The translations under genes were made by a program, and so were the position numbers. From positions 1 through 64,000 of IMG/VR virus record IMGVR_UViG_3300032116_000104: DNA of 64,000 bases, one strand, 5' to 3'. The DNA is from a virus. Of the stretch, positions 21,622-38,015 are shown one piece after another (within the stretch, counting starts at the first letter, position 1; every line of letters begins with the position of its first letter). Below the pieces are notes generated by a model, which worked only from the letters and a program-made list of their open reading frames with translations, was not told the origin of the DNA and searched no databases.

Positions 21622-23267
21622 TTCTTCTTGTCCTTCTCTTTGAGGAACTTCTTGACAGCGTCTGGCAGTGCGGCATCTACTTCCTCAATTGCCTTTTGAG
21701 ACACAATGCGGTCACCAGACTCCAGAAGTTTGGTAGTCATGTCCTGAAAGGAATAAGGGTCAAAGATGTCAACGCCTTCTGAGTTGACAAATCTAATTTC
21801 AGAAATGTTGAGCGGACTCAACTCAACCTTCACTTTGTCTGCCGCTTTCTGCTGGAGATAGATGGTGACTGCTGGGAGATTAAGCCCGCCCCCGATTGGG
21901 CCGCCGCCCTGCATGAATAGAACAGCATCCTCGTCGCTCAATTTCATCTTCTTTAGTTTCAATGCTATGACATCTTTGCCAACAACTGGGTCGCGAGGGG
22001 GAACCTCTACCGAATTTATGTCCAGCATTGACAGTGGGTAGTGGATGACCTCAACCTCGCTCTTGTTGATTCCACCGAGAATGTAGGCCTTGAATCCAGG
22101 ACTATTGGCATGTCCAATGAGTTGCGAATAATCGCCAGTAATGGCTGCCTCAATGTAAATCTCCAGAAGTTCAAGGTTCCTGGCTTCGCTATTACGGGAG
22201 TTGATGTTCCCCAGAACAGCAAGGGCAATGTTCTCAGAATCCTCTGACATGGTTGAAACGGAGTAGGCGTTATCAAATATGCCAGTGTTTCTTGAGTATC
22301 CCGTGCGTCCAAAAACCTCTGGTTTGAGCAGGATGTGAATCTTGTCGTTCATTGAGAAGAACTCGGACTTGTAGTTCTTCTTCTTGTTATTGGGCTCGGC
22401 GGACTTGAATCCAGAGTGGTGCATCCACCCAGAGATGGGGCGAGCCTCGTCTCCCGTCTTTCTGCTGATTCCCAAAGTTAGGTCAGCATCTCTCTGGATG
22501 TCCGCTTGTGAGCCAGACGACCTATCTCTTACTATTTTCTTTCTCTCGGCTAGAAGAAATAGTGTCTCCACAGACGCATCAACAGAGACAAATCTCTCAA
22601 ACCCAGCATGCAATCTGAAAGCCAATTTCTCTAGAATCTCTATAATCTCTTCGTTGGTCTTTTTTTCCACCGCTTTCTTCAGGTATTTAGATACCTCAAC
22701 ATCGTTTTCCCTGACAGATACGGACGGCATTCGGATATCGTCTAGAATCTTCATTACAGTGTCGGTGAAGTCGTCGTAAGCGTCGTCAATATCCGTCGCA
22801 TAGTTGGTGCCGTACATCTCATCCAACTTTGAGATGTCATTCATCATGGACTTAGATGCACTGAAGTGGTCAAATGGCTTGCCGCCAGCAGCCTTAATCT
22901 CCCTGATAACAGACTCATTGCGGCGAGAAATTTCTAGGGCATTGCTTGACTTCTTGGTTGACTTGCCGCGACGCTGTTTCTCCTCTTGACGCACATCTCT
23001 AATGGCATCAATAAGCAAGCCAGCCTCTCTCCGCTCATCGCCAGTCATTGTTGCCGAGGCTTTTTGGGCACGTCGCTCCATGTCGGACATGACCTTATCC
23101 AGGCCGTCTTGCTCAATAACTTCAAGAACCATGGTGCCATCTGGGTCAGGCTGACCCACCCTCAGTTTGGCTGGAGGTAGGACAACATCCTCTTTCTGAC
23201 GGTCTTTGTTGGACTTGAATATTCCCTTGGACCCAGCAGGAAGTTTTACACGAACTTTCTTGCTCAT
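21618..23267 (-). CDS. 549-aa head-region protein, possible degenerate DUF3626/ART-like fold
   Basis: R.AD..LG......ARPISG and FKAYILGGI...EVEVI loosely echo RP.YG and YIEAQIHG of DUF3626. Confidence 0.7.
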   Translation of the reverse strand: MSKKVRVKLPAGSKGIFKSNKDRQKEDVVLPPAKLRVGQPDPDGTMVLEVIEQDGLDKVMSDMERRAQKASATMTGDERREAGLLIDAIRDVRQEEKQRRGKSTKKSSNALEISRRNESVIREIKAAGGKPFDHFSASKSMMNDISKLDEMYGTNYATDIDDAYDDFTDTVMKILDDIRMPSVSVRENDVEVSKYLKKAVEKKTNEEIIEILEKLAFRLHAGFERFVSVDASVETLFLLAERKKIVRDRSSGSQADIQRDADLTLGISRKTGDEARPISGWMHHSGFKSAEPNNKKKNYKSEFFSMNDKIHILLKPEVFGRTGYSRNTGIFDNAYSVSTMSEDSENIALAVLGNINSRNSEARNLELLEIYIEAAITGDYSQLIGHANSPGFKAYILGGINKSEVEVIHYPLSMLDINSVEVPPRDPVVGKDVIALKLKKMKLSDEDAVLFMQGGGPIGGGLNLPAVTIYLQQKAADKVKVELSPLNISEIRFVNSEGVDIFDPYSFQDMTTKLLESGDRIVSQKAIEEVDAALPDAVKKFLKEKDKKK

Positions 23268-26200
23268 TAGACAACGCTTTCTTTGCGATTTGGGTCAGGT
23301 ATTTGACGTGATGAAATCCATCTATCACCTACAGCGAGACGAAGTATTGCATTTTCACTCATTGTTGCCAGTTCATTAACATACAGGCGCATTTTAACAT
23401 CCCGAACCCTTAATCTTTCTGTTTCCGCCTGAACGCCAGCATTGGCCATATGATTTGTTACGCCAAGTTCATCAGCGATACCGCTAATTCTTTTTTCAGC
23501 CGTGGCAACATTCCACCCAAGTCCTGAACTGTCTCCCGATAGTTTTACTTCCCTGGGCATGCCCATTTCTTCTAGTAAATTGGCAACAATTTCTCCCCTT
23601 TTTGATTCCCTAGTTAGGCCAGCCATGGCAAAGGAGCCTTTTGGTATGACCAATCCAGAACCTGGAGCGGCAGATGCGTATGTATCAACTCCATAAAGAT
23701 TATCCAAAGCATCTGGATTATGTTTTATAAATTCCCTTAGTGGTATAACTATGGCACGACTTGACTCTGGAGTTTCCCTCGCTGAATGGCCAGAAACAAT
23801 ATGGTTCAGGGCAAAGTGAACGGTGCCCCTATTGAGCGGAATATAGTAATATCCAGTACTTTCTGTGCCCATAGGCATTGTCGCCCCATAATCTCCAGAT
23901 GGGCGCAAAATCAAATTTCCGTCCTCGTCAACTTCTGGTTCATAGGGAGTTTCATGAACCAGGAATAAGTCGTCCACCGAAAGTCCAGAGAAGTCGCTAT
24001 CTCGTGATGGGCGCAAAAGTCTTTCTTTCGTTTCGTCACTTATGTCCATCGCTTCAACTTGTTCAATCCATTTCTGTCTTTCTTCTTTTTCTTTCCTTAT
24101 TCCTTCTTCTCTTTGAATTTGCAATTTTTTCCTTGATTCTTCAACCATCTGGCGGCCAATGCGTGCCATTTCCTTTAATGTTTTTTCGGCTTCTGTATCA
24201 CCTCTTGATGACGCATAAAGAAGCGCTGCGACAAATGCTGATTCATCAAGACTCCCTTCACTGTTTGCATATGTAACTGCATATATAAAGTCAGATGCAG
24301 CCTGTTTTCCTTCTTCAGATGATTCTGGAAATCCAGATATAACATAAGGATTCAGGGGCATATCTTTTATTTCTGGGTTGTTCGCAACAACTTCTGGTCG
24401 GGCACCAAACATGACTTTTTCACCAGCAAAATCCCAAACTTCTATTTCCCAAACCGTTCTAAAGCCCTCCAGACCCTCGTCCGAAAGTATTGTAGTTTTT
24501 TCTCCCTTGAACTCTCCTGGCTGAAGTCGCTTGGGTGTACCAGACCTTAATCCCCTGCCAGTTGAACTGCGTAATCCCCTGCCGCTAAACGGGTCGCTTG
24601 GGTCAAATACCGTAGGCTCCTCATCCATCCCCATTCTTTCCCGAATTCTTCTCATCGTCCTTCTGCCTGCATCTGCAGCCCTAGATACACCGTCGTTGGT
24701 ATCTGGTGGAGGAAATGGATTACCGAACGGGTCGCTGGGGTTTTGTGTTGACTCTTCTCTAGTGAGCCTGCCTCTCGCCCTTGATGCGGCAGAAGAAACT
24801 CCTTGTCTTGCCGAGCGCGCCCTCTCCCTGTTTTTTTCTGTATCAATTCTTGCCCTTGCAAATCGCCCAGCATTGACGGCAGCATCCTTGAGTGGGTCGG
24901 GAAGTCCTTCTGGGGCAATTCTGTCAAGGCGCGAAGTTATTGCATTGGCTTGTCTTTGACTAAGTTTTCCGTCTTCAACAAGTTTGCCGACAACATAATC
25001 TGCGACATCCCTACCGCCCCTCCGCGCAAGTTCAAGACCTAGTTTCGTAATAGCAGCCTTGGGTCCAAATTTCATCGCTAAAGCAGTATCAAGAATCATT
25101 CCCGCTACTTCTTTTTCACCCTCGTCAAGGCCCATCCTCTCGGCAATAGCGTCAAGCGCCCTACCCTTGAGTCGCTCCCCAAGTCCACCTTTTCTCTTCT
25201 TTCTTTCTCTTCTCGGGCGAGATGTGTCAACTTCTGGAGTGGTCACTTCTGGAAGAGCAAACGGGTCGGCAAATGGGTCGCTTGAGTCATAGGTGCCAGG
25301 GGTTGTAGCAGGTGTTGTGGCAATTGTTCTTATAGGAGTTGCAAACGGGTCGGCAAATGGGTCTGCAAATGGGTCACTGCTAGACCTGAGGCCGCGAGAT
25401 TCACCCCTCATTAGCCCAGTATGTGTAATTTCTGTTCCTGGAGTCATTGAGGCAATATCGCCAATATCTCCGAGGTCATCTGCATCAATCTCAACAACGG
25501 CGTCAAATAGGAGTGGATTCTCCTCCATTGCAGAAAGCATTGGGGCCATATAGTTCTTGACTTGCTCGTCAAGCAGGGATGAATCAGATGACTTCGGTGT
25601 TCCTCTGGAGCCCATCAGTCTTGTGTCGTTGAGCAGTCTTCTTATTTCAGCGCTCTCTCTCAAAGAAGAAGAAACACTTCTCAGCCCAAGGTCGCTTGAC
25701 ATGTATGGGGCGTTTCCAGATAGTGCGTCTTCAACAGAGCGAGCCTGCTCCCTTGACATATTGCGCTGTGTAGTTACTGCTTGTATTCTAGAACTGCTTC
25801 TGGAGCCCATACGCATGGGGACTTCATCCATTTCCTCCCTATCAAAATTTGATAGGTCAAATCCGTATTCGGGTATCACCTCAATGCCATGCTCTTTTAC
25901 AGCCTGCAAGTCAGCAAGGTCATCTATTGATGACATAAAGCGCTTGAGGGCCAGAGCCTGATTGCGCTTTCTTCTCTGGAAGGTTCCCTCATCTGGCCTT
26001 TTTTCATTGCCAGATGCACGCATGGCTTCATCTGCGGCATTCTTAACAGCGGCCTTTAGTTGCATTAACTGGTCTTCATCAAGTTCCCTAAGGTCGGTCG
26101 TCCCAAAGTTCTCTTGTGAATACTCGCGGACAAAACTTAAATTCGTGGTTGGACCATATCTCCCATCATCCCCGCCATTAACACGGGCATTGATGTCATC

Positions 26201-29104
26201 AATCTCTTGTTGTATTTGTGATTTTGTAATGTTGTCCCTGGATGACGGGTCTTTTGTACTGCGCGCCTTCTTCAGGCGTTCCCAAATTCTGCTTCTTCTT
26301 TCTTTCCTTACCGTATTATTGAACTTCTTGCCGTCTGGACGCTTTGATGGCTCGGGCCCAGCAGGAGCATCAGCGGGCCGCCTCTCTGGCTGTGGCGATA
26401 CTGGGCGAGGAGCGCTAGGCACAACATCCAGTTCGTCCACTATGTCTGGGTCATTGACAACAGATTCTGGGGTGTCTGGTCTTGACGCTGGCTCAACACC
26501 AGGCGACTCTCTGCGCCGTCTCTCACGACGCAGTTGAATCATCTTCCTCATATCTGAGGCAATGTCACGGAAACTCTTCTCAAGCGTGTCGTCGCCAAAG
26601 TCTCTGTACCCATCGGCGCGGGCGTCTAGAGCCCTCGCAAGAATCTCTAATTCGCGGTCGTTGAGTTGCCCGAGGTTGTCTTTTCCGAACGATTGCTTGA
26701 TGTAGAAGTCAATAAAGTCTTTGCGCTGCTGATGCACCTTTGAGCGGCTTCTGGCTCTCTTCATAATCTTTGAATAGAGTTCCTGCATCTCTTCTGGGGT
26801 CATTGACTCAAGACCGTCAATCTCCCCCATGCTGAATCCGCCTGGAGCCCAATTATCTCTGCCCCCAGATAGCGCGGCAGGTACTTGTGGTGTCGGTACT
26901 CCTAGTTCTTCGGCAAGGTCTGGAGCGACGCTCGCTGGAGGTGCTGCTGGAGATACGGGGGGTTCATAACTCTGGGCAACCCTAGGCTTCGGACGCTCCA
27001 TGAACTCAATGGCATCATCAACCTGCTCGCCAGAAATCACGCCCCTTTTCTTCAGTGCAAATAGTTCTGCAGTTGTTTCAAGGTAGGCGACAGAACGAGC
27101 ATCTTGAATTGTAGAGGCAGATTCACCGCCTTGAATTGCTGCCGCAATTTCCATTTGCTCCCTGTAAGACCTTTTTCCAGCAAGCAGGTCAACTTTTTGA
27201 GCAATAAGTTGCTCTATATCGCTTCCAGCGTATTTTGATGTATCAACACCGCCAGTAAGTGCATCCATAACCATCTCGCTAATTTCGGCGTTTGTCATGT
27301 CATTAGTTATGACTCCAGCGCCTCTTAGGAAGTCCTCAACCTGCTCCATTTGCAAAACGTGACCGAATTCGTGGTACACAAAGTGAGTACCCCTCTCGGT
27401 AAATCCACCTTCTGCTGCTGCCAAGTCAATTGCGAACTTTGAGGAATAGTCTTGGAGAAGTTTTAGTTCGGCTGCAGCACGAGCAACCGCCATGGCGTTT
27501 TCCGCATCAGTGCCCTCTGTTCCTTCCTTTACCTGAAGGAGAAATGTCTCATCTGCCTGAAGTTTTTGAAGAGATGTTTCATCTACTTTAAGAATCTCAA
27601 GAGGATTGTACTCTATTGCATATAGCGTATTTCCTTGACCATCTGTTGTTCTTATTGCTTGCCCTTGGTCTCCAGCCTGGAAAAATGCAGTCCTGAGAAC
27701 CATTTTTTGTGTAACTTCTGGATAGTCGTATGACACTTCGGCAAACGCTTCAAGTTGTCCATTGAGTTGGTCAAACATTCTCGTCGTTTGACGACCAACT
27801 AGGTCTTTGTCTGGATAATCCTGACCAGCGAGATGGCTTCGGGCATGCCTGAGCGCATCGGCATCGTTATAACCAAGATTGCGTAACGCTGTATGTACGA
27901 AGACTGCTTCGTGTGCTCTCAGTTTCTCTTCAATAGAAGAATTTGCGGACAGGTTAATTCCGAGTTCTTGAAGGATTCTCTGTAGTTCTTGATGTTCAAT
28001 TCCAAAACTTTTATTTTTGTCAACTTTAATTGACTCCGAAAACGGACTAAGAAGAAAATCGTCAATCCTAAAATCTGGATTCATTCTTCCAGAATCAATC
28101 ATTGCTTGAAACAGGCTTGTTAGTGCCGCTGTTCTATCGCCACTCATATCCACGCCAAGACTGTCGGCAAGAAGTTGAACTGTTTTCATTCTGCGCTCAA
28201 TGGCGAGTTTCATACCCTCCTCACGCTGAGCAAGTGCAAGCACTTGTTCTGTGACTTGCGATGTTCTTTGGGCTGGCGGCACCCTGCCCATGACCTGGCG
28301 AGCCCTGTCAATAAAACTGGTTCTTGACCTGAGTCCTCTTGCTTCCGAAACAACCTCAGCGACATTGACGGCAGCAATGCCTACGCTGGAGAGCGTGGGT
28401 CTTCCAGAAAATGCTTGAGATATTTCAGAAATGATGTTGCCTATGTCAGCAACGGAAAGGGTGAAGCAGTTTGAGCCCTGGGCGTCCGTGAACTGGTTGG
28501 CCGCTGGAACTCCAGGAGGGCAACGCAATCTGCCTAACGCATCAACAACCATTCCAGCCCGCACGGCGGCACGGTTCACGAGTTTTCCAGCAGGATTGCG
28601 CTCGCCTATGCTCCGCCCAAGAGCCTTGACCTCTATTGGAGTCTTGTTTATTTGACCAGTCTTAGGGTTGATTTTGTGCTTTGTGATTTCAACTTGCGGA
28701 CCATTGACCAGTGAATCTCTGGCTTCCATGAAACTGGTTTTCTTAGGGCTGACCCATCCGTAATTCGGCTCGGTATCAAGACCCTGGGAGGCCATGAATG
28801 CCTCCCTATCGGTAACCCAATGCTTGAAGAACTGCCCTGGCTTCCGCTTGGCACTCGGGTCCCAAATTATGCCAGTGCGTTCCTTGTTGGCATTTTCGCC
28901 CTGTGTTCTTTTCTTGCCGTCGGTATTGCCTTTTTTGGGCATGGCGGCAGCAGATACATTGGCGTTTAGGCTCGCCTGCTTAGAGAGTATTCCGCTGATG
29001 GCCTTGAAGGCGACCGCTCTTTCGTTGAAGTCAGGGCGTGTGCTTTCTGCCTCAAACACTCTGGGCGCATAATAGCGATATTTGTTAAAACGCGCCCCCG
29101 TCAT
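23267..29104 (-). CDS. 1945-aa polyvalent-type protein with zincin metallopeptidase, five GLRS sites and DPF repeats
   Basis: KALG, RCPPG..NQFTD..C, HEFGH (27359-27373) with downstream ETTAELF; C-terminal LVHET...RGTVHFALNH domain. Confidence 0.85.
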   Translation of the reverse strand: MTGARFNKYRYYAPRVFEAESTRPDFNERAVAFKAISGILSKQASLNANVSAAAMPKKGNTDGKKRTQGENANKERTGIIWDPSAKRKPGQFFKHWVTDREAFMASQGLDTEPNYGWVSPKKTSFMEARDSLVNGPQVEITKHKINPKTGQINKTPIEVKALGRSIGERNPAGKLVNRAAVRAGMVVDALGRLRCPPGVPAANQFTDAQGSNCFTLSVADIGNIISEISQAFSGRPTLSSVGIAAVNVAEVVSEARGLRSRTSFIDRARQVMGRVPPAQRTSQVTEQVLALAQREEGMKLAIERRMKTVQLLADSLGVDMSGDRTAALTSLFQAMIDSGRMNPDFRIDDFLLSPFSESIKVDKNKSFGIEHQELQRILQELGINLSANSSIEEKLRAHEAVFVHTALRNLGYNDADALRHARSHLAGQDYPDKDLVGRQTTRMFDQLNGQLEAFAEVSYDYPEVTQKMVLRTAFFQAGDQGQAIRTTDGQGNTLYAIEYNPLEILKVDETSLQKLQADETFLLQVKEGTEGTDAENAMAVARAAAELKLLQDYSSKFAIDLAAAEGGFTERGTHFVYHEFGHVLQMEQVEDFLRGAGVITNDMTNAEISEMVMDALTGGVDTSKYAGSDIEQLIAQKVDLLAGKRSYREQMEIAAAIQGGESASTIQDARSVAYLETTAELFALKKRGVISGEQVDDAIEFMERPKPRVAQSYEPPVSPAAPPASVAPDLAEELGVPTPQVPAALSGGRDNWAPGGFSMGEIDGLESMTPEEMQELYSKIMKRARSRSKVHQQRKDFIDFYIKQSFGKDNLGQLNDRELEILARALDARADGYRDFGDDTLEKSFRDIASDMRKMIQLRRERRRRESPGVEPASRPDTPESVVNDPDIVDELDVVPSAPRPVSPQPERRPADAPAGPEPSKRPDGKKFNNTVRKERRSRIWERLKKARSTKDPSSRDNITKSQIQQEIDDINARVNGGDDGRYGPTTNLSFVREYSQENFGTTDLRELDEDQLMQLKAAVKNAADEAMRASGNEKRPDEGTFQRRKRNQALALKRFMSSIDDLADLQAVKEHGIEVIPEYGFDLSNFDREEMDEVPMRMGSRSSSRIQAVTTQRNMSREQARSVEDALSGNAPYMSSDLGLRSVSSSLRESAEIRRLLNDTRLMGSRGTPKSSDSSLLDEQVKNYMAPMLSAMEENPLLFDAVVEIDADDLGDIGDIASMTPGTEITHTGLMRGESRGLRSSSDPFADPFADPFATPIRTIATTPATTPGTYDSSDPFADPFALPEVTTPEVDTSRPRRERKKRKGGLGERLKGRALDAIAERMGLDEGEKEVAGMILDTALAMKFGPKAAITKLGLELARRGGRDVADYVVGKLVEDGKLSQRQANAITSRLDRIAPEGLPDPLKDAAVNAGRFARARIDTEKNRERARSARQGVSSAASRARGRLTREESTQNPSDPFGNPFPPPDTNDGVSRAADAGRRTMRRIRERMGMDEEPTVFDPSDPFSGRGLRSSTGRGLRSGTPKRLQPGEFKGEKTTILSDEGLEGFRTVWEIEVWDFAGEKVMFGARPEVVANNPEIKDMPLNPYVISGFPESSEEGKQAASDFIYAVTYANSEGSLDESAFVAALLYASSRGDTEAEKTLKEMARIGRQMVEESRKKLQIQREEGIRKEKEERQKWIEQVEAMDISDETKERLLRPSRDSDFSGLSVDDLFLVHETPYEPEVDEDGNLILRPSGDYGATMPMGTESTGYYYIPLNRGTVHFALNHIVSGHSARETPESSRAIVIPLREFIKHNPDALDNLYGVDTYASAAPGSGLVIPKGSFAMAGLTRESKRGEIVANLLEEMGMPREVKLSGDSSGLGWNVATAEKRISGIADELGVTNHMANAGVQAETERLRVRDVKMRLYVNELATMSENAILRLAVGDRWISSRQIPDPNRKESVV
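25340..25375 (-). repeat. Tandem 12-bp repeat encoding (DPFA)3; further DPF copies near 25260-25285, 24715-24733 and 24588-24606
   Basis: Units of GCAAA(C/T)GGGTC plus one base on the + strand. Confidence 0.8.
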
Positions 29105-29121: not shown

Positions 29122-30630
29122 TCAGGAAAGGTCTGACCCGTTGCCCTCAATTTCCGAGTTGAGAAGTTCAAACTCAACAAGGGATGAGATGAACGAATCT
29201 GAACCATCGCCAGACTTCTCTTCCATCATCTTGGCTCCGCCAGTCAGCCAGTTCACTGGAATCATGCTCTCCTTGCCAAGTTCCTTGGCACGCTTCATGA
29301 TGTGACGCTTTGCGGCCTCTTTGTCCTTGGCGCGACCATAGGCCTGAATGGCGTTCTGGAGGTCAGACTCATTGGCAATCGGGAACGAACCATCAGGAAG
29401 GGCATTGCCCTCCTTGGCCATGGCGGTGCGCTGGTCCTCAGTAAAGGCGCGCTTGAGTGCAATCTCGGCAGCCTCGGCCTCAATCGCCTCGGCCTCCTCT
29501 GGCTCGTACTTGTCGTAACCGAGCACCTCACCATCAAGGGCAACAAAGACATCGTATGACTTGCCGTCAATGCCGTTAATCTCAACGGCATAGGCGTCAA
29601 AGCCCTCAAAGATGTCTGGCTCAACAGAAATAGCCTCGCCCTCAATGGACTTGACGGCAATCTCTACTGCCTCAGACATATCAATAACTAACATTGAATC
29701 AAGCGCTGACTTCTGCTCAAAAGAGTTCTCGTCAAGTTTCTTCCAGCCAAGCACCTCGGAGGTGGTGCCATCAATGAACATTTCTACAGCCCGACCATCT
29801 TTTGCCTCAACATCAACGACGAACATGTCGGCGTCAGATGAGTACCCAGAGTCAAGTACCTTGCCATCAAACATGGTTTCGGCAATACCCTCGGCGTGCA
29901 AAAGACCTGGCATTCCAGCCTCAGGCACGCATCCGCCTGGGCAGTCAGCGCAAACAGCGGCACCACCTGGGTACACCTTGCGCTCAATGGAGCAAAGATA
30001 AGCGTTTCTTCCGACCTCGGCGGCCTTGACACCAAGGGACTGGAGGCGGCGCTTGCGCATCTTCTCCATATCGCCTGGGATACCCATGCCGTAGCCCTTC
30101 ATGGACTCCTCGTCGTCTTCTTCCTCGTCGTCCTCCTCCTCCATGTCCATGTCCTCGTCGTCCATGTCCATTTCGGGCTTGGCCATTGCGCCCTTCATCT
30201 TCTTTTTGCGCTTGGGCATCATGTAATCGCCATCCATGCCCCAGCCCTTCTCGTCGGACTCATCCTCCATGTCCTCGTCCTCCATCTCCTCCTCGTCGGG
30301 AGCCATCATGGAGGCTTTCATCTTCTTCTTCTTGCGCTTGGGCATCATGTAGTCCTCGCCCATGCCCCAGCCCTTTTCATCGGACTCGTCTTCCATATCC
30401 TCTTCGTCGTCTTCCATGTCCATCTCGGCCATGGAAGCGGCCTTCTCGTAGAGGTCATCAAAGTCCTCATTAATTGGAACCATCTTCATCTGAACGGGCA
30501 CGGCGCCACACTTGGCGCACACCTTCGCACCAGGGACGAAACCGCACTCAGCAGCATCGGCACCCTTGGCGCACTTAAGAACATTGCCATCGGCATCAAT
30601 GCTGACTTCGGCCTTCTCGTCATATCCCAT
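29122..30630 (-). CDS. Capsid-maturation-associated protein: Cys-rich domains, acidic Met-rich repeats, PepSY-like domains, C-terminal DUF6582-like domain
   Basis: C..G...CG......C..CG; EAVEIAVK...G....VE......Y.VEI...DG..Y.V.V..DG.VLG (PepSY-like); ALPDGSFPI...DL.NAI.AYGRA. Confidence 0.8.
   Translation of the reverse strand: MGYDEKAEVSIDADGNVLKCAKGADAAECGFVPGAKVCAKCGAVPVQMKMVPINEDFDDLYEKAASMAEMDMEDDEEDMEDESDEKGWGMGEDYMMPKRKKKKMKASMMAPDEEEMEDEDMEDESDEKGWGMDGDYMMPKRKKKMKGAMAKPEMDMDDEDMDMEEEDDEEEDDEESMKGYGMGIPGDMEKMRKRRLQSLGVKAAEVGRNAYLCSIERKVYPGGAAVCADCPGGCVPEAGMPGLLHAEGIAETMFDGKVLDSGYSSDADMFVVDVEAKDGRAVEMFIDGTTSEVLGWKKLDENSFEQKSALDSMLVIDMSEAVEIAVKSIEGEAISVEPDIFEGFDAYAVEINGIDGKSYDVFVALDGEVLGYDKYEPEEAEAIEAEAAEIALKRAFTEDQRTAMAKEGNALPDGSFPIANESDLQNAIQAYGRAKDKEAAKRHIMKRAKELGKESMIPVNWLTGGAKMMEEKSGDGSDSFISSLVEFELLNSEIEGNGSDLS
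30203..30405 (-). repeat. 126-bp-period imperfect duplication encoding EDMEDESDEKGWGMxxDYMMPKRKKK twice
   Basis: GCGCTTGGGCATCATGT at 30208 and 30334. Confidence 0.8.
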
Positions 30631-30725: not shown

Positions 30726-33700
30726 TTAGAGGTCTTGAATCTCAACTTCTCTTCCGCGCTGATTGCGTCGGTTGACCGTTCTGGAACTCAACTCCTCAAC
30801 CGTTCTGTCAATGAATGTAGCCATGGCTGCTTTAGCGAGCATGTCAAGCATGGTTGCAAACTTCTGCTGACGCTCGTTGCCTCCGATGGCACCTTGACGG
30901 TCAATGACCACCATCATGGCGTCAAGGATTTCATCAACTTCATCTCTGGTCATCAGGATGCGCCCAGCGTTGGTTCTTCTGCTGCCCAACTTGGCTGCCT
31001 CTTGACGACTGATGAGGTCTTGAAGCGCCTTGAGGGCGTCTGATGTTCTCTTGTCCTGAGCCTTGTCTGCCTCACGGATTTCCTTCGGCAGTGAGTCAAG
31101 AATATCTTTGAAGAAAGTGGCTTCTGCCTTGATTTCCGTGCGGCCCTGCTTGGAGTCGGTTGACGACCTCAGGCCTCTCGTGTTCCGCGAGCGGGCGGCC
31201 ACATAATCCCTAACTTCCTGGGACACCACCCTGTTGGCATTGACTGGGACACTTGAGCGGAGACCCTCACCCATGCGTCGGGTAATGACTTCTCCTGCTG
31301 CTGGCTCCGCGTCTGGAGTTGGGACATTGTCGTCAATGTCCAGTGGGCGGCCCTCAACTCTCCTGACAACACCGCCAGTATCGTCAAACGCATCGTCTGA
31401 AATGTCGGCAATGTCGGCAGCAGCGCGACCCCTTCTCGGTGCAACCTCTATCTCTGGTCCATCCTTAATGAACTTGTCATTCTTGTAATAAGTGTCCAGT
31501 CCGTTAAGGGTTCTCAAGAGTGTTTCTGCTCGCTGAATAATCTTCTCTGCTGGACCATCGGTATCGTCGGCTTCCTCGGCGTCAGCGAGGTAGTTCTTAA
31601 CTCTCTGGATGGCAGCCTTGATTTGGTTCCTGCTCAGGTCTTCGCTGTCCATAATGTCAGCGATTTCATCCCAGGCCTCAGCATGGAGTTCATCAATTCT
31701 GCCCCTGTCTGAAAGTCTTGAAGCGTCGTTGACGGTCTTGTCAAGGAAGTTGTTGATTCTTCTTGAGTCGTCTCTACGCTCCGTGGTTGCGTCTTCGTCA
31801 TTTGCAGGACGAGGCTTGACGGCAACTTCTTTTGGCCCCTGTTGTGGCTGGCGTTGTGTCGGCTGCACTGGGCCCCTCTCGGCACGACGAGCCCCACGCT
31901 CTGCCCTTCTTTCGTCAGAAGCCTCTCTATCAAGCACTTCCTTCATAACGCGCTCATAGTCAACTTTGCGCATTCCACTTCTCTCTGGAGAGTGGTCTGC
32001 CATCCAGTTGAACTGTTGTTCTGCCGTCATGCCATCCCAGTTATCTGGCTTCATGCTCTGGAATGTCTTGCCCTTGCTGTCTTCCTTGGCCCTAGAGCCC
32101 ATCGGGCGTCCTTTGCTGCCACTGCGACCAGTATCACCGAGTCCTGTTACGCGGATTCCACCTCCGCCAGTATCGTCATCGCTGGTTGATGAACGCATGC
32201 CACGACCACTTGACTTCTTGGGATTGGCATCGCCAGTAATATTGCTGTACAGGGTATCAAGGGCCTTCCAGTCCTTCGCAAGAAGCGTTCCGTCCCCACG
32301 CCTGTTGTACTCCTCTCGGATTCTCATTGAGACGCCGAGGCTTCCACCCCTTGCGCTGTTCATGAAGAACACGAGTTTCTTCTGGCGGGCCTCATCAATG
32401 TCCGCAGGAGCGCCATTGTTATTATTTGAACGAAGGCCTAGGTTGCCGCGCTTGCCAGCCTGCTGGTCTTCCCAGTTGAGGCTCACATACTTTCCGCCCT
32501 CTGATTCGGCGGCCTGGTCAATTACGCCCTGAATGTCGGAGGTAACAACTGTTCTGCCGTCTCGGCGTGGCTCTTTTGCCGACTCAATGGCGTCTTCAAT
32601 CTGCTCAACCTCGTCTGGGGTGAGGTCAACTTTGCCATTCCTTGCGTTTTTAAGTTTCTCGTCAAGAGCATCAAGCGCTGCACCATTGGCAGAAAAACGC
32701 TTGAGCATTGGAATCTCGTCGCGAAGTTGTGCAATCTCATCGTCGCTGAGCGTCATTGATAGATTGTTTGCAACTCTTCTTGTTGAAGAACGCATTCCCT
32801 CATCTGAATCGGTCCGTGACTGTTGTGCCGCCTCGCGACGACGCATTGCACGCAGTTCCGCCTTGCGAACATCTTCACGACGCATTCCGAGAGACTCGGC
32901 CACTTCCTGGAGTGATTCACCTGCCTCGCGGCGTCTCAGAATTCGGTTTTCCGTTTTTTCTCTTTTTGCCCTTTCAAGACCTTCCTTGACGGTGGGTCTT
33001 GGTTTCCTGGCGGCGCGCGCAGTTGTGACCGCCCTGTCTTTCCCAGTCCAGTCCTTGAAAATCCTTGCCCTGGTCGCAAAATCACCTATTCCTTTATCGT
33101 CCCATGCATCAAAAACTCTTTCAGTTATTCCATCACCCCATGGGCCCATCATTTCCCTAACAGACGGGTTCTGCACTGGGAAGTCATCATCTATGCCCAG
33201 AGCGCTGGCAATTTGCTCGGCAACGATTTCCCCAAAACCGTTCAATACATCAACGAATGCCGATTCTTCTCCTTCGTCCCCAAATAGTCCATCAGACATG
33301 AGCCTGACCGCATCCTCTGCGAGAGAATCCATGCGAGAACGCATATTTTCTCTGGTAAATGGGGTGTTGGCAGCCGCATCAAAGAGTTCTTCAGTCCTGC
33401 TCCGAGACGACTCATCCAGGTCACGAATCATTGACCTTCCTGACTCCCTTTTACGCACATCAGACACTCTGTCTTTTCTGTCACGAGTTGACGACATCAG
33501 ACCTCTAATGCGTGCCTTTTGCTTATCGTTTGGATTTGGACGAATGGGCAATTTTTCAATATTGCGCTCCATGCGGTCACGCCAGTCATCCAGAAGTTCA
33601 ATTATCTCATCTTTGCTGAAAGAGTCCCAGTTTCGCAGCCACTCTCCCGTTGGGTCATCTGGGTCAGGGAGATACTCATTATCTGGGATGTTCGCTGCCT

Positions 33701-36700
33701 TGACTCTTTCCTCAAGAAGGTCACGAGCAAGGTAGGCAATATCAGTGACAGCCGTTCTATCTCCGCCACCTCCAGTGTTTCTGACACCATTTGCGGCTAT
33801 GTCAATTATTGACTGACGGATACGATTTAGTTCATCGCCAATGTTTTCTGGAGTTATGTCAGTGAGAACTATTGATTCAAAAAGTTCCATCGCTCTGTCT
33901 GCTGTGGCGGCATCCCATCCACCGCCCTGCTGCCCAGGCTGCATGAACCCCCTGATGTCACGCAACTCTTTTGACGCATCAAGTCTTGCCTGACGCGCCT
34001 GTTGTGCTGCCGCAGATGCGCGCCCTGCCTCTACGTCCCTCATATTGACGACTTCTACATCGCCAGTGCTGGAACGGACTCCTGTAGTTGGAAATTTGTT
34101 ATTTAACCCATTGGTCAGGGTATTGATTTCGTCTTCTGAGAATCCAAGTTCTCTGAGTTTGCCAACAATGTCTGACTCAATTTTCTGACGCGCCTCGCGA
34201 GACTCCGTTGGGTCAATCTTGCCCTTTTCATCACGCTTGACCATTCCAGAGCCGCGCTTACCGAGGTTCTCGGTCGTGGAGCGCATTCCACTACGGCGAC
34301 GCGCTGGGTTCAGGTTCTCAAGTTCTTCTTTAGAAACACCTTCAACAATGACCCTTCTTGCGGTCTTGGCGACTTCAAGTTGTCTGGCGAGCCTGGCTTC
34401 GTCTGGGCTTGGCTTGGCTCTCTCCATGTTCATATCGTCAACAGCAAGTTTGAGAACTCTATTCATGTCCTCAAAGTTGGTAGTCCCATTCTTCATGTCA
34501 CGAATGAGGCCATCAACCCAATCCTTGTCAAGGCCGCCCCTTGCCGAGTAGGCGGTTGGATAGTCTTCTAGTGACTCTTCAATATCTCTCAGAAACTCTG
34601 AAATTCTTCTGCCGCGACGGTCGGTAATTGACAGCGGTGAGTCCATTGAAGAACTCCTGAGACCACGAGCACGATTCATGCGTGGGTCTCCTCTGGTCTC
34701 TGCAATCTCCCATGCACGGAGGTCTTCCGCTCTGACGCCAAGGATTCCAGCAAGTTCACGAACTGGCGTTCCTTCAAAGCGCTTACGCAAGATGAATTCA
34801 GCAAGAGCCCTATCGGTGTCCTGGAATCGCGGCTCCTGACCTGGCTCCCCTCGTTGCGCAAGTTGTGCTGGTGTTCGTGCTGGGATGAGGTCTTTCGCCC
34901 TCTTCTTAATTTCCTGAATTTCTAGTTTCCGCACTTCTTCGCGCGACATACCATACTCTTCAGCAACATCATCAAGTACTTTGCCAGCAAGACGAGCATC
35001 AACAATCGCCCTGTCTCTGTCAATCTCAACCTGCATATCGTCCAGCAGCGCATCAACATCGTCTCTATCGGTTGAGGAACGAAGGCCTCTTCTTGAGCCA
35101 CCCGCATCTATGGAATCAGCAAGTTGCTGAATATCCTCAAACGGACCACCACGGTCTCTTCCGTATGCAGAGAGAGTGGCTATTAAAGCCAGTCTTGCGT
35201 TGTTCTTATCGTCCTCGCTAAGAGGAGACTTTGGCCTTCTTCTGCTCGGAAAGAATTTTGTAAAATCATCTCTGTCGCCGTCAGACAGTTTTATATATTG
35301 GTCTTTAAGTGTTGAAATAAGGTCGCTTAGTTCTTCTGCGCCAGGAAATTCGTCTGGAATGTCGCCTTGCATTACTGATGCAACTGTCCAGTCTGAACCA
35401 GGCTGCGGGGGAAAGTAATCGCCCTGTTCGCTAGGCATAAACCGCGAAAGAACCTCCCCGAGGTTTTCAAGGAGAATTTCATCTACATCATCCATTGATG
35501 TATCACCGTCATTGCCAAGACTTGCGTCAAGCGCCTCTATTGCTCGCTGAAGTGCTTTTGTCTGCTCATCTATGGTCATTTCCGCAAAGCGGTCTCCCAT
35601 TGCGTCAATAATTTCTCTTTGCTCTACGCTATTGGCCTTTGCCGTTCTTGAGCGAAGCCCATCAGGGCGACCCTTGGAGTCTCCAGCACTTTGCATGCTA
35701 CGCACCATGTTACGAAGCGCATCAGAGTTTTGCTTATCCGTACTACGAACTCGCTTGTTATTTACTGAGTCAAGAACTGTGCCGAGGGCAAGAAGAGACG
35801 CAATTTGGTCGTCTTCTGACACTGCTCTCTTCCCTCTGGTTTTATACATGTCACCAAAGCGACCCTTGCCGCCAAGTTTTTCATAGGCATCCTGGACTTC
35901 ACTCAGAAGGTCACTGACGCTCTCTTTGTCAACGCTCTCTGAACCATCAAGAATTTTGGATGCTGAGTAATCACCCGATGGCGCTTCCACGGATAGAAAA
36001 TCACTCATTAGTTCAGACAGGTATTCTCTGTAGAAATCAATTTCATCGTCACCAGTGGCATCAAACAATTCCAACTGGTCTTTAACGATATTTCTAAAAG
36101 CCTCTTTTCTTTCAGATGGAGACATTTTTGCCATTGATTCAATTGCTGTTCCAGAACGCAGTCCACCATCACGACGGTTCTTGGCCTCAAGTTCGGCTTG
36201 TCGCACATCCTCGCGACGCATGTTGAGCGACTGAGCAACATCCTGTAGTGACTCCCCAGCCTCGCGGCGCTTGAGAATCTCATCGTTTGTCTTGCGCTTT
36301 GCATCGCGCTGGCGGATTGCCCGAAGTTCAGCCTTTCGCACGTCTTCGCGGCGCATGCCAAGGGACTCGGCTACGTCCTGCAAGGACTCTCCAGCCTCAC
36401 GGCGCTTCAAGATGGAGGCGTCGTCGTTGCTGTCTTTTCCACCAGATGAACGGAGACCACGACCAGTGTTGATGCCCTGCCCCTGGGCGGCCTGAATTGC
36501 CGCCTGAGTATTTACGCGACCACGCGTTGACCTGTCGTTGACGCCTGGAATCGCAGGTCTTTGGAACGGTGTCCCTTCTTGAACGATGCCATCGCCGTCA
36601 CCGTCCCAAGCGTTGGGGTCAAATCTAGCGGTTAGGCCTCTTGCGAGGCGGCGTCCTTTTCCCCCTCCGCCACCACCAATCGCTCGCCCGATGCGATTGC

Positions 36701-38015
36701 CAAGCCCCTTCTTTAGAGTTTCAACTGCATCAATGAACTCGGGAGTGACACCAGAGGTAATCACGATTCCCTTTTCAGAGACATATGAATCTACGCGGTG
36801 GTAATCCATGATTGGGTCAAGGAGTTGCTTCGTGTGGAAAGCATTATTGATGTCAACTGGGATGACATACTCTGCTGACTTCACTTCAACTTCCTTCTCT
36901 GCCGAAGCAAGGACATCTTGGAGCATTTCCATGACATTCTTCAGTTTTGCAAGGTTGCGCTTGTTGAGCGAGCGGCCAATCTTCTCCTCAATGTCATCAA
37001 GGAAGAAGTCGTCAAAGTCCAAGTCGTCGGACTTTCCTGGCATTGGCATGAAGTCGTCTGGGTCATCCCCAAGATAGGCGTCCCCCTGCGGCTTCATTGA
37101 CACAGCAAAAGCCTGTGCTGGAGATGACGGTATGGCGGGAATCTCTGGCGTGTAGACAGTCTGACTCTGGACGCGCTCAGGCTTGCCAAACATGAATTGA
37201 CCATCCTGGAAGTGGAATGCCACTCTGTATGTTGACGACTCACCGTCGCTTGTCAGTCTGTCAAAAACAACAGTGTTCTCTGTTGCGGCCCTCACGATGA
37301 CGTTGGAGCCAGACCGCTTGACAAGTTCCCTTCTGAGGGCAACCATCAGCGGGTTCTCTGGGGCAGATGGACGAACTGGGCGAACGGCCTGCTGTGGCTT
37401 CGGCGCCATTGGCTTCATCATTCCAGACGGCATTCCAGGGCTGTGCGGCATGCCTGGCATGCCCATCATTCCGTGACCCTTCTCCTCATCCGCCAGAGTA
37501 GTATCTGACTTAACCGAAATCGTGCCAGTCAGTTGGTTGGCTCCATGAAGAACTGGGGAAACCTCGTAAAGTTCCACCTCTCTGAGGATGTTGGCCTGAA
37601 GATTAGGGTCAAAAGACGCCTGAATGGTCTTGTAGCCAATTGACCACTCCTGCTCCTCACCAAAGAAGGCAACATTGGCGAAAGCCTCACGGCCCTTCTC
37701 TGAATTGAGGTTGAACTGAACGCGAGCGTAAAGACCGCCGATTCCAGCAGCCTTCATCTTTCCTGGCAGTCTTGAGTCGGTTGGGGGAACTTCGTAAATC
37801 TCCAAAACCTTGCCGATGGGGTCATTCCAGTTGTGTCCCCAGACGACTCTTGGCTTGCGTCGCTTCAGACTTGAGTTAAAAGCACCTGGGAGAAGAACAT
37901 CACCGACGCTGTCCTTGTTTCCGACGCCAGCAACGAAGCACTCAACGATGCCCTGAGCCTGGTCAACATTGAATGTTCCAGAACTCGCTTTGAACTCAAT
38001 ATCAGAAAAAGACAT
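30726..38015 (-). CDS. Prohead (HK97-type, S78) protease fused to a ~2250-aa modular polyprotein
   Basis: N-terminal ~170 aa: G.VE.FV...GNKDS.GD...PGAF..SL......W.HNW..PIG...WSIGY...LYEVSPVL.GAN. Lies between portal and capsid genes. Confidence 0.92.
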   Translation of the reverse strand: MSFSDIEFKASSGTFNVDQAQGIVECFVAGVGNKDSVGDVLLPGAFNSSLKRRKPRVVWGHNWNDPIGKVLEIYEVPPTDSRLPGKMKAAGIGGLYARVQFNLNSEKGREAFANVAFFGEEQEWSIGYKTIQASFDPNLQANILREVELYEVSPVLHGANQLTGTISVKSDTTLADEEKGHGMMGMPGMPHSPGMPSGMMKPMAPKPQQAVRPVRPSAPENPLMVALRRELVKRSGSNVIVRAATENTVVFDRLTSDGESSTYRVAFHFQDGQFMFGKPERVQSQTVYTPEIPAIPSSPAQAFAVSMKPQGDAYLGDDPDDFMPMPGKSDDLDFDDFFLDDIEEKIGRSLNKRNLAKLKNVMEMLQDVLASAEKEVEVKSAEYVIPVDINNAFHTKQLLDPIMDYHRVDSYVSEKGIVITSGVTPEFIDAVETLKKGLGNRIGRAIGGGGGGKGRRLARGLTARFDPNAWDGDGDGIVQEGTPFQRPAIPGVNDRSTRGRVNTQAAIQAAQGQGINTGRGLRSSGGKDSNDDASILKRREAGESLQDVAESLGMRREDVRKAELRAIRQRDAKRKTNDEILKRREAGESLQDVAQSLNMRREDVRQAELEAKNRRDGGLRSGTAIESMAKMSPSERKEAFRNIVKDQLELFDATGDDEIDFYREYLSELMSDFLSVEAPSGDYSASKILDGSESVDKESVSDLLSEVQDAYEKLGGKGRFGDMYKTRGKRAVSEDDQIASLLALGTVLDSVNNKRVRSTDKQNSDALRNMVRSMQSAGDSKGRPDGLRSRTAKANSVEQREIIDAMGDRFAEMTIDEQTKALQRAIEALDASLGNDGDTSMDDVDEILLENLGEVLSRFMPSEQGDYFPPQPGSDWTVASVMQGDIPDEFPGAEELSDLISTLKDQYIKLSDGDRDDFTKFFPSRRRPKSPLSEDDKNNARLALIATLSAYGRDRGGPFEDIQQLADSIDAGGSRRGLRSSTDRDDVDALLDDMQVEIDRDRAIVDARLAGKVLDDVAEEYGMSREEVRKLEIQEIKKRAKDLIPARTPAQLAQRGEPGQEPRFQDTDRALAEFILRKRFEGTPVRELAGILGVRAEDLRAWEIAETRGDPRMNRARGLRSSSMDSPLSITDRRGRRISEFLRDIEESLEDYPTAYSARGGLDKDWVDGLIRDMKNGTTNFEDMNRVLKLAVDDMNMERAKPSPDEARLARQLEVAKTARRVIVEGVSKEELENLNPARRRSGMRSTTENLGKRGSGMVKRDEKGKIDPTESREARQKIESDIVGKLRELGFSEDEINTLTNGLNNKFPTTGVRSSTGDVEVVNMRDVEAGRASAAAQQARQARLDASKELRDIRGFMQPGQQGGGWDAATADRAMELFESIVLTDITPENIGDELNRIRQSIIDIAANGVRNTGGGGDRTAVTDIAYLARDLLEERVKAANIPDNEYLPDPDDPTGEWLRNWDSFSKDEIIELLDDWRDRMERNIEKLPIRPNPNDKQKARIRGLMSSTRDRKDRVSDVRKRESGRSMIRDLDESSRSRTEELFDAAANTPFTRENMRSRMDSLAEDAVRLMSDGLFGDEGEESAFVDVLNGFGEIVAEQIASALGIDDDFPVQNPSVREMMGPWGDGITERVFDAWDDKGIGDFATRARIFKDWTGKDRAVTTARAARKPRPTVKEGLERAKREKTENRILRRREAGESLQEVAESLGMRREDVRKAELRAMRRREAAQQSRTDSDEGMRSSTRRVANNLSMTLSDDEIAQLRDEIPMLKRFSANGAALDALDEKLKNARNGKVDLTPDEVEQIEDAIESAKEPRRDGRTVVTSDIQGVIDQAAESEGGKYVSLNWEDQQAGKRGNLGLRSNNNNGAPADIDEARQKKLVFFMNSARGGSLGVSMRIREEYNRRGDGTLLAKDWKALDTLYSNITGDANPKKSSGRGMRSSTSDDDTGGGGIRVTGLGDTGRSGSKGRPMGSRAKEDSKGKTFQSMKPDNWDGMTAEQQFNWMADHSPERSGMRKVDYERVMKEVLDREASDERRAERGARRAERGPVQPTQRQPQQGPKEVAVKPRPANDEDATTERRDDSRRINNFLDKTVNDASRLSDRGRIDELHAEAWDEIADIMDSEDLSRNQIKAAIQRVKNYLADAEEADDTDGPAEKIIQRAETLLRTLNGLDTYYKNDKFIKDGPEIEVAPRRGRAAADIADISDDAFDDTGGVVRRVEGRPLDIDDNVPTPDAEPAAGEVITRRMGEGLRSSVPVNANRVVSQEVRDYVAARSRNTRGLRSSTDSKQGRTEIKAEATFFKDILDSLPKEIREADKAQDKRTSDALKALQDLISRQEAAKLGSRRTNAGRILMTRDEVDEILDAMMVVIDRQGAIGGNERQQKFATMLDMLAKAAMATFIDRTVEELSSRTVNRRNQRGREVEIQDL

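Follow-up and report, generated by a model that had tools for sequence, protein, structure and literature searches.

We think it probable that a lethal-factor-like endopeptidase, packaged and injected, forms the core of a family of giant phage proteins, one member of which (P0001, 1945 aa) is encoded by an uncultured, 84-kb phage. In the window (the whole stretch of DNA that was analysed, 64,000 nucleotides), the gene for this protein and the parts of its product that carry the argument are placed as follows.

23267..29104, minus strand: gene for P0001, the giant head-cassette protein of 1945 aa, from the ORF list and its translation
28337..29104, minus strand: conserved N-terminal module, aa 1–256, with 16 columns invariant in 42 sequences
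28463–28525, minus strand: N-module motif RCPPGVPAANQFTDAQGSNCF, aa 194–214; the module also bears the motif K160-A-L-G
26960..27787, minus strand: zincin metallopeptidase domain, aa 440–715, as delimited by the AF2 model and structural matches
27359..27373, minus strand: HEFGH, aa 578–582, with two His as predicted zinc ligands and E579 as predicted general base
27065..27082, minus strand: LETTAE, aa 675–680, with E676 as predicted third zinc ligand and E680 as predicted supporting acid (ExxxE/D)

The segments HFVYHEFGH (aa 574–582, 27359–27385, minus strand) and YLETTAELFA (aa 674–683, 27056–27085, minus strand), which a first-pass annotation had pointed out in the 1945-aa protein, are real, and they lie almost exactly where it put them: its interval ends at 27373, the first base of His578, and starts at 27061, with YLETTAELFA extending five bases beyond, to 27056. 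The spacing that it gave as about 100 aa is 96 aa from H578 to Y674. A glutamine after HEFGH, Q585, completes a HExxHxxQ signature, which we take to resemble that of DUF4157; identity with that family was considered and dropped, as Pfam gave no supporting match.

HExxH occurs once in P0001, where 0.015 occurrences are expected from composition. A single HExxH somewhere in the full proteome of a phage may still be a coincidence, and what counts is therefore whether it is conserved. In an alignment of 36 diverse sequences (A4), invariance is confined to five columns, H578, E579, H582, E676 and E680, and the HExxH residues are also invariant in two further alignments (A1 and A2). Among 60 distinct domain sequences, the H, E and H of HExxH are kept in all 60 and Q585 in 56; E676 and E680 are aligned in 53, and the remaining seven have the same helix ~170 aa past HExxH. 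There are 209 relatives of P0001 in IMG/VR, and we fetched the loci of 80; HExx(x)H is kept in 76 of the 76 whose ORF reaches the site, the other four ending before it and so standing outside the count. One locus (L030) has HEVGAH, an HExxxH variant that an HExxH regular expression misses, with the Glu helix intact. A search for natural zincin knock-outs in phages with the motifs treated below as punctuation found none. In the mechanism we propose, aa ~440–715 would be a zinc endopeptidase of gluzincin type, catalytically competent and folded like lethal factor, in which H578, H582 and E676 would hold the zinc, E579 would activate the water and E680 would back the site.

The AlphaFold (AF2) model of the domain (pLDDT 80.6, pTM 0.81) presents an N-terminal helix, three strands, the HExxH helix and the Glu helix, which is the element order of the zincin fold. 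HEFGH falls within a model helix spanning 119–156 and E676 and E680 within another spanning 228–247 (domain numbering), and from these helix positions we infer that H578, H582 and E676 converge. A wide structural search with VIA-align, independent of Foldseek and covering 48,161 chains, gave as its best match the lethal factor (LF) catalytic domain (1yqy_A residues 592–778; rmsd 4.3 over 153 residues, 12% identity) at Z 9.3, a score that by the tool's own caution stands only moderately above the reach of unrelated, largely helical models and that is only ~2–3 units over other zincin families. Further matches include PPEP-3 (Z 6.3), PPEP-2 (Z 6.2), neprilysin and thermolysin, among others, and about 40 of the best 50 matches listed are zinc peptidases or LF-type domains, judged by title. 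Foldseek itself returned zero matches to the PDB at E <= 0.001; realignment of its top 1000 placed the LF N-domain first (Z 7.0), followed by PprI and SPRTN. In BFVD there is one clear match, an uncultured-phage protein that is probably a member of the P0001 family, and the weak matches there are proteins of MuF-like or minor capsid type and phage proteins that carry an M34 or lethal factor label. In a protein atlas, ATLF (PF07737; score 0.87) is the closest of the named clusters, which we treat as a lead only. The first-pass reading of the two motifs as a zincin signature thus holds up: five invariant catalytic residues and a zincin fold point to a true gluzincin-type domain, and we are fairly confident that it is an active metallopeptidase.

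The same fold list bears on two other readings. In one, the domain is a zincin-fold module that lacks peptidase activity and serves as a metal-binding structural or docking domain or as some other metal-dependent hydrolase. The absence of a sequence-family match and the presence of YbeY nucleases and an HExxH oxygenase domain low in the fold list (Z 4.2–5.3) would suit such a module, but peptidases top the structural matches, and the general-base Glu and the ExxxE pair are invariant together with the ligands, which is the set of a peptidase and goes beyond metal binding; we hold this to be highly improbable. In the other, the zincin is a wall-breaching enzyme, ejected before or with the DNA, that degrades peptidoglycan peptides for an envelope conduit. 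The usual wall metallopeptidases (M23 and M15) are not known to use HExxH. Cell-wall peptidase families are absent from the Pfam, NCBIfam and PHROG scans, and the top structural matches (lethal factor, Pro-Pro endopeptidases, neprilysin) are long-cleft protein endopeptidases. Wall breaching therefore seems to us very unlikely here, even though one preprint proposes it for the metallopeptidase domain of the phi24B virion protein gp47 (bioRxiv 10.64898/2026.04.10.717836) and another describes a muralytic metallopeptidase motif in the T5 tape measure protein (bioRxiv 10.1101/2022.09.20.507954).

Sequence models pass over the endopeptidase domain. Pfam had zero matches at E <= 1 on the whole of P0001 and nothing meaningful on 15 domain members, the best being DUF6055 (0.015, in 2 of 15) and Peptidase_M50 (0.21, in 1 of 15); PHROGs and NCBIfam left the domain unrecognised, PDB sequence profiles built from A1 and A4 left it unmatched, LF and PPEP chains included, and the PF07737 (ATLF) sequence model matched neither P0001 nor the 15 members. 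Comparison by hhalign with the MPTase region of N4 vRNAP (aa 2130–2448) gave a probability of 1.5%, the alignment being confined to the HExxH helix, and one of 0.2% when the profile was deeper; the template in both cases was a single sequence, and the power of the comparison is low. Because Pfam, PHROG, NCBIfam and PDB sequence models all miss it, we regard the domain as a new family of the polyvalent-protein zincin kind. By sequence, then, it is a new family of known design, although the alignments or clade lists of Iyer 2017 might contain it.

P0001 is built in a fixed order, with the conserved N-module followed by the zincin core and then a variable C-terminal part. Members of the family range from 1337 to 3798 aa, and the N-module (RCPPGTPAANQFT...C) and the zincin together would make up its constant core of ~1,140 aa, with a C-terminal part that differs in each member. 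The N-module yields a poor model (pLDDT 66), with all matches in the fold search at Z <= 2.6, and the C-terminal 424 aa of P0001 have zero matches in the protein atlas. A tblastn search with the zincin segment and the N-module against 50,697 phage records (cultured phages) also returned zero matches. In this group of uncultured phages the zincin gene sits within the head-gene block, between the portal and protease genes and the capsid gene, and in the related loci examined the order portal, protease-headed polyprotein, ~460–675-aa protein and zincin gene is kept. The portal itself is ~25–44% identical to portals of actinobacterial and Ralstonia phages. The third gene in this order is always directly upstream of the zincin gene.

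29122..30630, minus strand: gene for a 502-aa protein with a PepSY-like domain below threshold

This protein is found at 50 of 50 loci with 57–78% identity, and PepSY is its only Pfam match, in 8 of 10 orthologues at 13.6–22.7 bits, all under the cut-off of 24. That it restrains the zincin in the producing cell is a weak lead only. Going by gene position only, P0001 would be packaged in the capsid and ejected along with the DNA; the peptidase would then act inside the infected cell. There its main substrates may be host proteins or co-ejected phage proteins, a proposal to which we give somewhat less than an even chance; the first-pass suggestion that it attacks host defence proteins is possible.

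Several of the phage's own proteins bear short repeated motifs, hereafter punctuation, which are the other proposed target.

28325..28336, minus strand: first GLRS of P0001, aa 257–260, between the N-module and the zincin segment; only some lineages have it there
25676..25687, minus strand: second GLRS of P0001, aa 1140–1143, at the end of the conserved core
24542..25393, minus strand: GLRS copies 3–5 of P0001, aa 1238, 1510 and 1518
30726..38015, minus strand: polyprotein of 2429 aa that opens with an S78 prohead protease and contains 12 G[LMV]RS copies (Peptidase_S78 1.5e-11, phrog_80 4.5e-29)
53748..55361, plus strand: GMRS (aa 41), GVRS (aa 570) and GLRS (aa 575) of the 1331-aa tape measure protein
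12400..12414, minus strand: K-G-L-G-S, aa 91–95 of the major capsid protein (442 aa), where its delta-domain is predicted to end

As had been noted, the segment that follows the first GLRS is indeed the one with the zincin, and a punctuation site at ~aa 1138–1166 recurs in five relatives examined. The first-pass annotation had gone on to propose a two-step maturation in which the prohead protease removes leaders at Lys sites and the zincin cuts at GLRS. In the form that we weighed, the zincin would be a dedicated protease for G-[LMF]-[RAS]-S punctuation (GLRS here), with S78 only removing leaders, and it would work in the capsid or once ejected, freeing modules from the head polyproteins, its own chain and the tape measure protein. 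Several observations fit. Tape measure orthologues bear their own lineage's motif at matching places (for example, the RLSSG lineage has RLSSG at aa 41 and 564, and the GLAS lineage has GLAS at aa 27, 586 and 595), and because a tail protein never meets a protease confined to the prohead, these motifs favour a second reader or one outside the head. All punctuated lineages examined have the zincin gene. Across loci, zincin identity is down to 23–36%, whereas S78 is 73–89% identical (it was not captured in the loci of the xLSSG clade) although the punctuation varies; the capsid protein is 71–89% identical. On these sequence comparisons, the fast divergence of the zincin fits a host-facing enzyme or a co-evolving one. 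Autoprocessing by such peptidases has also been proposed: Iyer 2017 (PMC5512222) indeed puts forward, as the first-pass annotation says, that phage polyvalent-protein metallopeptidases process their own proteins.

The capsid protein argues the other way. Its predicted maturation site, the expected target of S78, is K-GLGS or K-SLGS and so resembles the punctuation in type. When compared across 21 lineages, this site becomes [HQ]L[ST]S in a clade of eight (exactly LSS in five and LTS in three), seven of which have xLSSG punctuation, and EGLRE in three GLRS/GMRS lineages. The likeness of the capsid site to the punctuation, and the way both change together in one clade, make the S78 prohead protease the simpler candidate for the cutter; it also heads the most heavily punctuated protein. 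The proposed division into two classes of site is therefore unsupported, the capsid SLK-GLGS being itself G-L-x-S. Moreover, one clade (L019) has an intact zincin and lacks the punctuation motif. Motif classes track clades. In several phages R, A and S occur side by side at the third motif position, which implies a tolerant reader and means that co-evolution is not required. Given the shift of the capsid site and the L019 zincin, the tests lend no support to the zincin as the GLRS cutter, and we consider it unlikely that the zincin is the dedicated punctuation protease. A bolder version, in which a virion-delivered zincin reads its lineage's own 4- to 5-residue word (for example GLRS, GMAS, GFSS or RLSSG) and, in the new host, cuts the head polyproteins, its own chain and the tape measure protein into modules, with the PepSY-like neighbour silencing it in the producer, is in our judgement also unlikely.

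Among the modules of giant injected phage proteins, zinc peptidase domains are the most frequent, and to our knowledge a substrate or cut site has been established for none of them. The present phages offer a test bed, with one strictly conserved zincin, an adjacent S78 protease, hundreds of natural variants and exact, lineage-specific candidate cut sites on the head cargo, the tape measure protein and the capsid protein. Knowing which enzyme reads the punctuation would reveal how the protein cargo of these phages is unpacked, and also whether the zincin serves in processing or as an anti-host weapon. If the unpacking version were true, phages would have their own equivalent of the way eukaryotic RNA viruses process polyproteins, and the protease would co-evolve with its site.

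Returning to the injected endopeptidase that we favour, three known systems invite comparison, the first being the peptidases of polyvalent proteins (Pfam MPTase-PolyVal, presumably PF18818). Polyvalent phage and plasmid proteins with zincin-like MPTase domains were described by Iyer, Burroughs, Anand, de Souza and Aravind in 2017 (PMC5512222), who tie these domains to lethal factor by profile comparison. The P0001 domain is like the MPTases described there in having HExxH with a Glu on a later helix and in being embedded in a giant protein of many modules whose gene lies with late or virion genes; the HExxxH variant mentioned in the same paper has its counterpart in the HEVGAH locus. Unlike them, the P0001 family has its own constant RCPPGTPAANQFT N-module and HExxHxxQ, and none of the companion domains named in PMC5512222 was detected in it. 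In the virions of phi24B, a giant protein with a metallopeptidase has been detected (bioRxiv 10.64898/2026.04.10.717836).

A second likeness is to lethal factor and the Pro-Pro endopeptidases (MEROPS M34, ATLF PF07737), which are also gluzincins and supply the best structural match. The lethal factor motif is likewise HEFGH, and its gap from His to the Glu helix is ~45 residues. In P0001 the Glu helix comes 94 residues past the second His, a distance that includes five inserted short helices and that reaches ~170 in some relatives.

The third comparison is with the internal proteins of T4 and the ejection proteins of phiKZ, head cargo that is processed by the prohead protease. Like these and the ejection proteins of SPN3US, P0001 and its neighbours are large head-block proteins, presumed to be packed with the DNA, in which short repeated candidate cut sites are combined with a dedicated prohead protease. 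For T4, phiKZ and SPN3US no processing enzyme other than the prohead protease is known to have been described, and their cargo is not known to have a peptidase of its own. Unlike that cargo, the P0001 cargo carries a second predicted protease, and a strictly conserved one.

The motif pair singled out in the first-pass annotation, HFVYHEFGH and YLETTAELFA in the segment after the first GLRS of a 1945-aa protein, falls at the coordinates given for it in that open reading frame (ORF). The virus record is a single contig of 84,372 bp, of which the window covers the first 64 kb. The neighbouring genes share one strand and run in the order portal, S78 polyprotein, 502-aa protein, 1945-aa protein, large proteins and capsid, an order likewise kept in related loci. 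GLRS is the 'punctuation' of this phage, a short repeated candidate cut word that takes other forms in its relatives.

38106-40202, minus strand: portal gene, upstream of the 1945-aa gene
30726-38015, minus strand: 2429-aa protein beginning with the S78 prohead protease (S78 polyprotein), also upstream
29122-30630, minus strand: 502-aa protein, between the S78 polyprotein gene and the 1945-aa gene
23267-29104, minus strand: 1945-aa ORF, the zincin-bearing giant protein (ORF list and translation)
28325-28336, minus strand: first of its five GLRS words, aa 257-260
27359-27373, minus strand: HEFGH core of the nine-residue HFVYHEFGH (the nine residues being aa 574-582)
27056-27085, minus strand: YLETTAELFA, aa 674-683
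11356-12684, minus strand: 442-aa major capsid protein, downstream, beyond further large proteins
12400-12414, minus strand: predicted capsid delta-domain boundary K-GLGS, aa 91-95
53748-55361: tape measure punctuation sites

HExxH occurs once in the 1945-aa protein (0.015 expected from composition). With aa 261-720 as query, an exhaustive phmmer search matched 14 proteins, 13 of them giants of 1337-2347 aa matched at the same relative place and the last a 155-aa fragment; a word-indexed search gave two further homologues (45% identity). Alignment of 15 full-length proteins reveals two conserved modules, an N-terminal module and the zincin, the latter with G567, H578, E579, H582, Q585, E676, G688 and D696 invariant, and the sequence past about aa 1140 is all variable. 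From this alignment we obtained 209 IMG/VR relatives and kept 80 loci with 50 distinct N-termini. The ORF reaches the zincin site in 76 of the 80, and all 76 have HExxH, counting the HExxxH form (HEVGAH) of locus L030; no natural zincin knock-out was found among them. All 60 distinct domain sequences retain H, E and H, and 56 retain the Gln three residues past HExxH, the four exceptions being of the L019 type; the Glu helix aligned in 53 and was placed about 170 residues past HExxH in the other seven. Across 36 diverse domains in a tool-built alignment, H578, E579, H582, E676 and E680 are the sole invariant columns, which at the level of sequence is exactly the gluzincin set, with predicted roles as two His ligands, general base, Glu ligand and its supporting acid.

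The clade of L019, L021, L023, L024, L029 and L045 has HE[WF]GH with His replacing the usual Gln, an N-module without its first ~75-80 residues, a short protease protein, and no punctuation word. Six relatives (L009 aa 1617, L063 aa 1383, L070 aa 2458, L022 aa 2068, L073 aa 2177 and P0016 aa 1534) carry a second HExxH a long way past the first, inside the variable C-terminal region; these copies may be additional zincin modules.

In an AlphaFold2 model of the domain, built on a 15-sequence alignment (pLDDT 80.6, pTM 0.81), an N-terminal helix leads into three strands, after which come a backing helix, the long HExxH helix, five short helices and, separate from these, the helix bearing E676 and E680; from this model we infer the zinc-ligand geometry. 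Foldseek found no convincing match in the PDB. In a Foldseek-independent structural search of 48,161 chains, the top match was the anthrax lethal factor catalytic domain (1yqy_A 592-778; Z 9.3, rmsd 4.3, 153 residues), followed by the LF-type N-domains of lethal factor, Certhrax and edema factor (Z about 7) and the Pro-Pro endopeptidases PPEP-3 (Z 6.3) and PPEP-2 (Z 6.2), with neprilysin/PepO, PprI, DPP III, M32, M3 and M1 enzymes, SPRTN, selecase and thermolysin lower down. About 40 of the 50 matches listed have titles that mark them as zinc peptidases or LF-type domains; among the others are YbeY-type hydrolases and a single HExxH oxygenase domain. A Z of 9.3 is by itself moderate, and what gives the assignment weight is the coherence of the matches combined with the invariance of the catalytic residues. 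Independently, a protein atlas placed the domain closest to ATLF among its named clusters (score 0.87), only a lead. The earlier reading of HExxH...ExxAE as a zincin is thus upheld: judged from conservation and predicted structure, this is a genuine zincin domain whose catalytic set is complete and whose fold resembles that of lethal factor.

The same annotation proposed a two-step maturation in which the prohead protease removes leaders at Lys sites and the zincin cuts the GLRS sites. The genome contains 23 copies of G[LMV]RS (1.6 expected), confined to five proteins: the 596-aa protein (1 copy), the 1195-aa protein (2), the 1945-aa protein (5), the S78 polyprotein (12) and the tape measure (3). 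Related loci use lineage-specific words (GLRS/GMRS, GLAS/GMAS/GFAS, GFSS or [GRK]LSSG), with R, A and S mixed at the third position in some phages. HK97 is cut at K|SLGS. Here the predicted capsid boundary, SLK-GLGS, is itself a G-L-x-S word, which leans towards S78 as the reader. Extending the comparison to 21 more lineages, we read K[GS]LGS or something close to it in a group of eight that includes the window's; EGLRE in three GLRS/GMRS lineages and [HQ]L[ST]S in eight lineages of one capsid clade (exact LSS in five, LTS in three) lean the same way, seven of these eight having xLSSG punctuation and the eighth, L019, none, although such matches are clade-level coincidences, perhaps two or three events, and so are suggestive, not statistical proof. 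The L019 clade also favours S78: it has a short protease protein (896-aa ORF) and no punctuation motif, yet an intact zincin is retained in a 2029-aa protein.

On the other side, the word used by each lineage reappears at corresponding positions in its tape measure protein, as seen in four orthologues of about 40% identity: RLSSG at aa 41 and 564; GLAS at 27, 586 and 595; GLAS, GFAS and GMSS in the GFAS lineage; and, a weaker case, GFRS and GMSS in the GMAS lineage. The motif's reader therefore also meets a tail protein, and cleavage of the tape measure in tail assembly, by proteases other than the prohead enzyme, has precedent in T5 and lambda. Moreover, punctuation varies among phages whose S78 domains (captured in 35 of 50 loci) are 73-89% identical, whereas the zincin has drifted to 23-36% identity, tblastn still detecting it in 25 of 50 loci. 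The tape measure words and this divergence lean towards the zincin, or at least towards a reader acting outside the prohead. The first interpretation is thus only partly supported: the zincin's identity stands, but that it cuts GLRS we consider unlikely.

The N-terminal module (~230 aa), in which no known fold was detectable, has R194, C195, P196, G198, A202, N203, F205, T206, G210 and C213 among its invariants. Its core RCPPGxPAANQFT..G..C (28463-28525) has a shorter look-alike, RCPEG....RFTD.....C, elsewhere in the window, and the L019 and L024 loci have 'RCP' three times. Every group retains the module's K-x-L-G (aa 160-163), irrespective of capsid site or punctuation word. K-[AG]-L-G also comes after a long N-terminal leader in the 2429-aa (aa 436), 1195-aa (aa 215) and 596-aa (aa 228) proteins, as in the 1945-aa protein (aa 160), and recurs at the capsid boundary (aa 91).

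18589-20634: 681-aa protein with the look-alike from aa 129 on
36710-36699 area, 17950 area and 13960 area: K[AG]LG sites, nucleotide positions approximate

The first GLRS, at the junction of N-module and zincin, is restricted to a subset of lineages; another punctuation site, around aa 1138-1166, is common to the window (aa 1140) and five relatives (L004, L009, L010, L020 and L031), and divides the constant core from the variable tail. Within aa 1238-1945 (23267-25393), DPFADPFADPFA repeats and more SDPF words adjoin GLRS copies 3-5, and a conserved A.AF...GP.G.....ARRG.RD stretch is common to relatives; the last 424 aa matched nothing in any library tried. The upstream 502-aa protein, well conserved (57-78% identity across 50 loci), has PepSY as the sole Pfam match in eight of ten orthologues, every score below threshold. 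Its N-terminus is rich in Cys (C..C pairs), it contains long acidic repeats of the EDMED type, its C-terminal part is the one that resembles PepSY below threshold, and it carries no punctuation. That it and the zincin might form an inhibitor-peptidase pair is a lead, not a finding.

Our best reading is that the 1945-aa protein is a packaged, ejected endopeptidase. It would be packaged in the virion and then ejected, after which it might unpack phage cargo or attack host proteins, roles that are distinguishable using the exact sites listed here.

The domain went unrecognised by Pfam, PHROGs, NCBIfam and PDB sequence profiles, hhalign gave no support for a relation to the N4 virion RNA polymerase region (the MPTase of Iyer et al.), and neither zincin segment nor N-module was found in 50,697 cultured-phage records; the zincin is thus a family new at sequence level, though of a kind already known. 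In the giant 'polyvalent' proteins of phages and plasmids, zincin peptidases are described as the most frequent module, linked to lethal factor, with variable inserts and an HExxxH variant, and with autoprocessing or effector roles proposed (Iyer et al. 2017, PMC5512222); that variant has its counterpart here in L030. The sequence family as such carries no annotation, and a zinc peptidase within a giant phage virion protein is a design already published.
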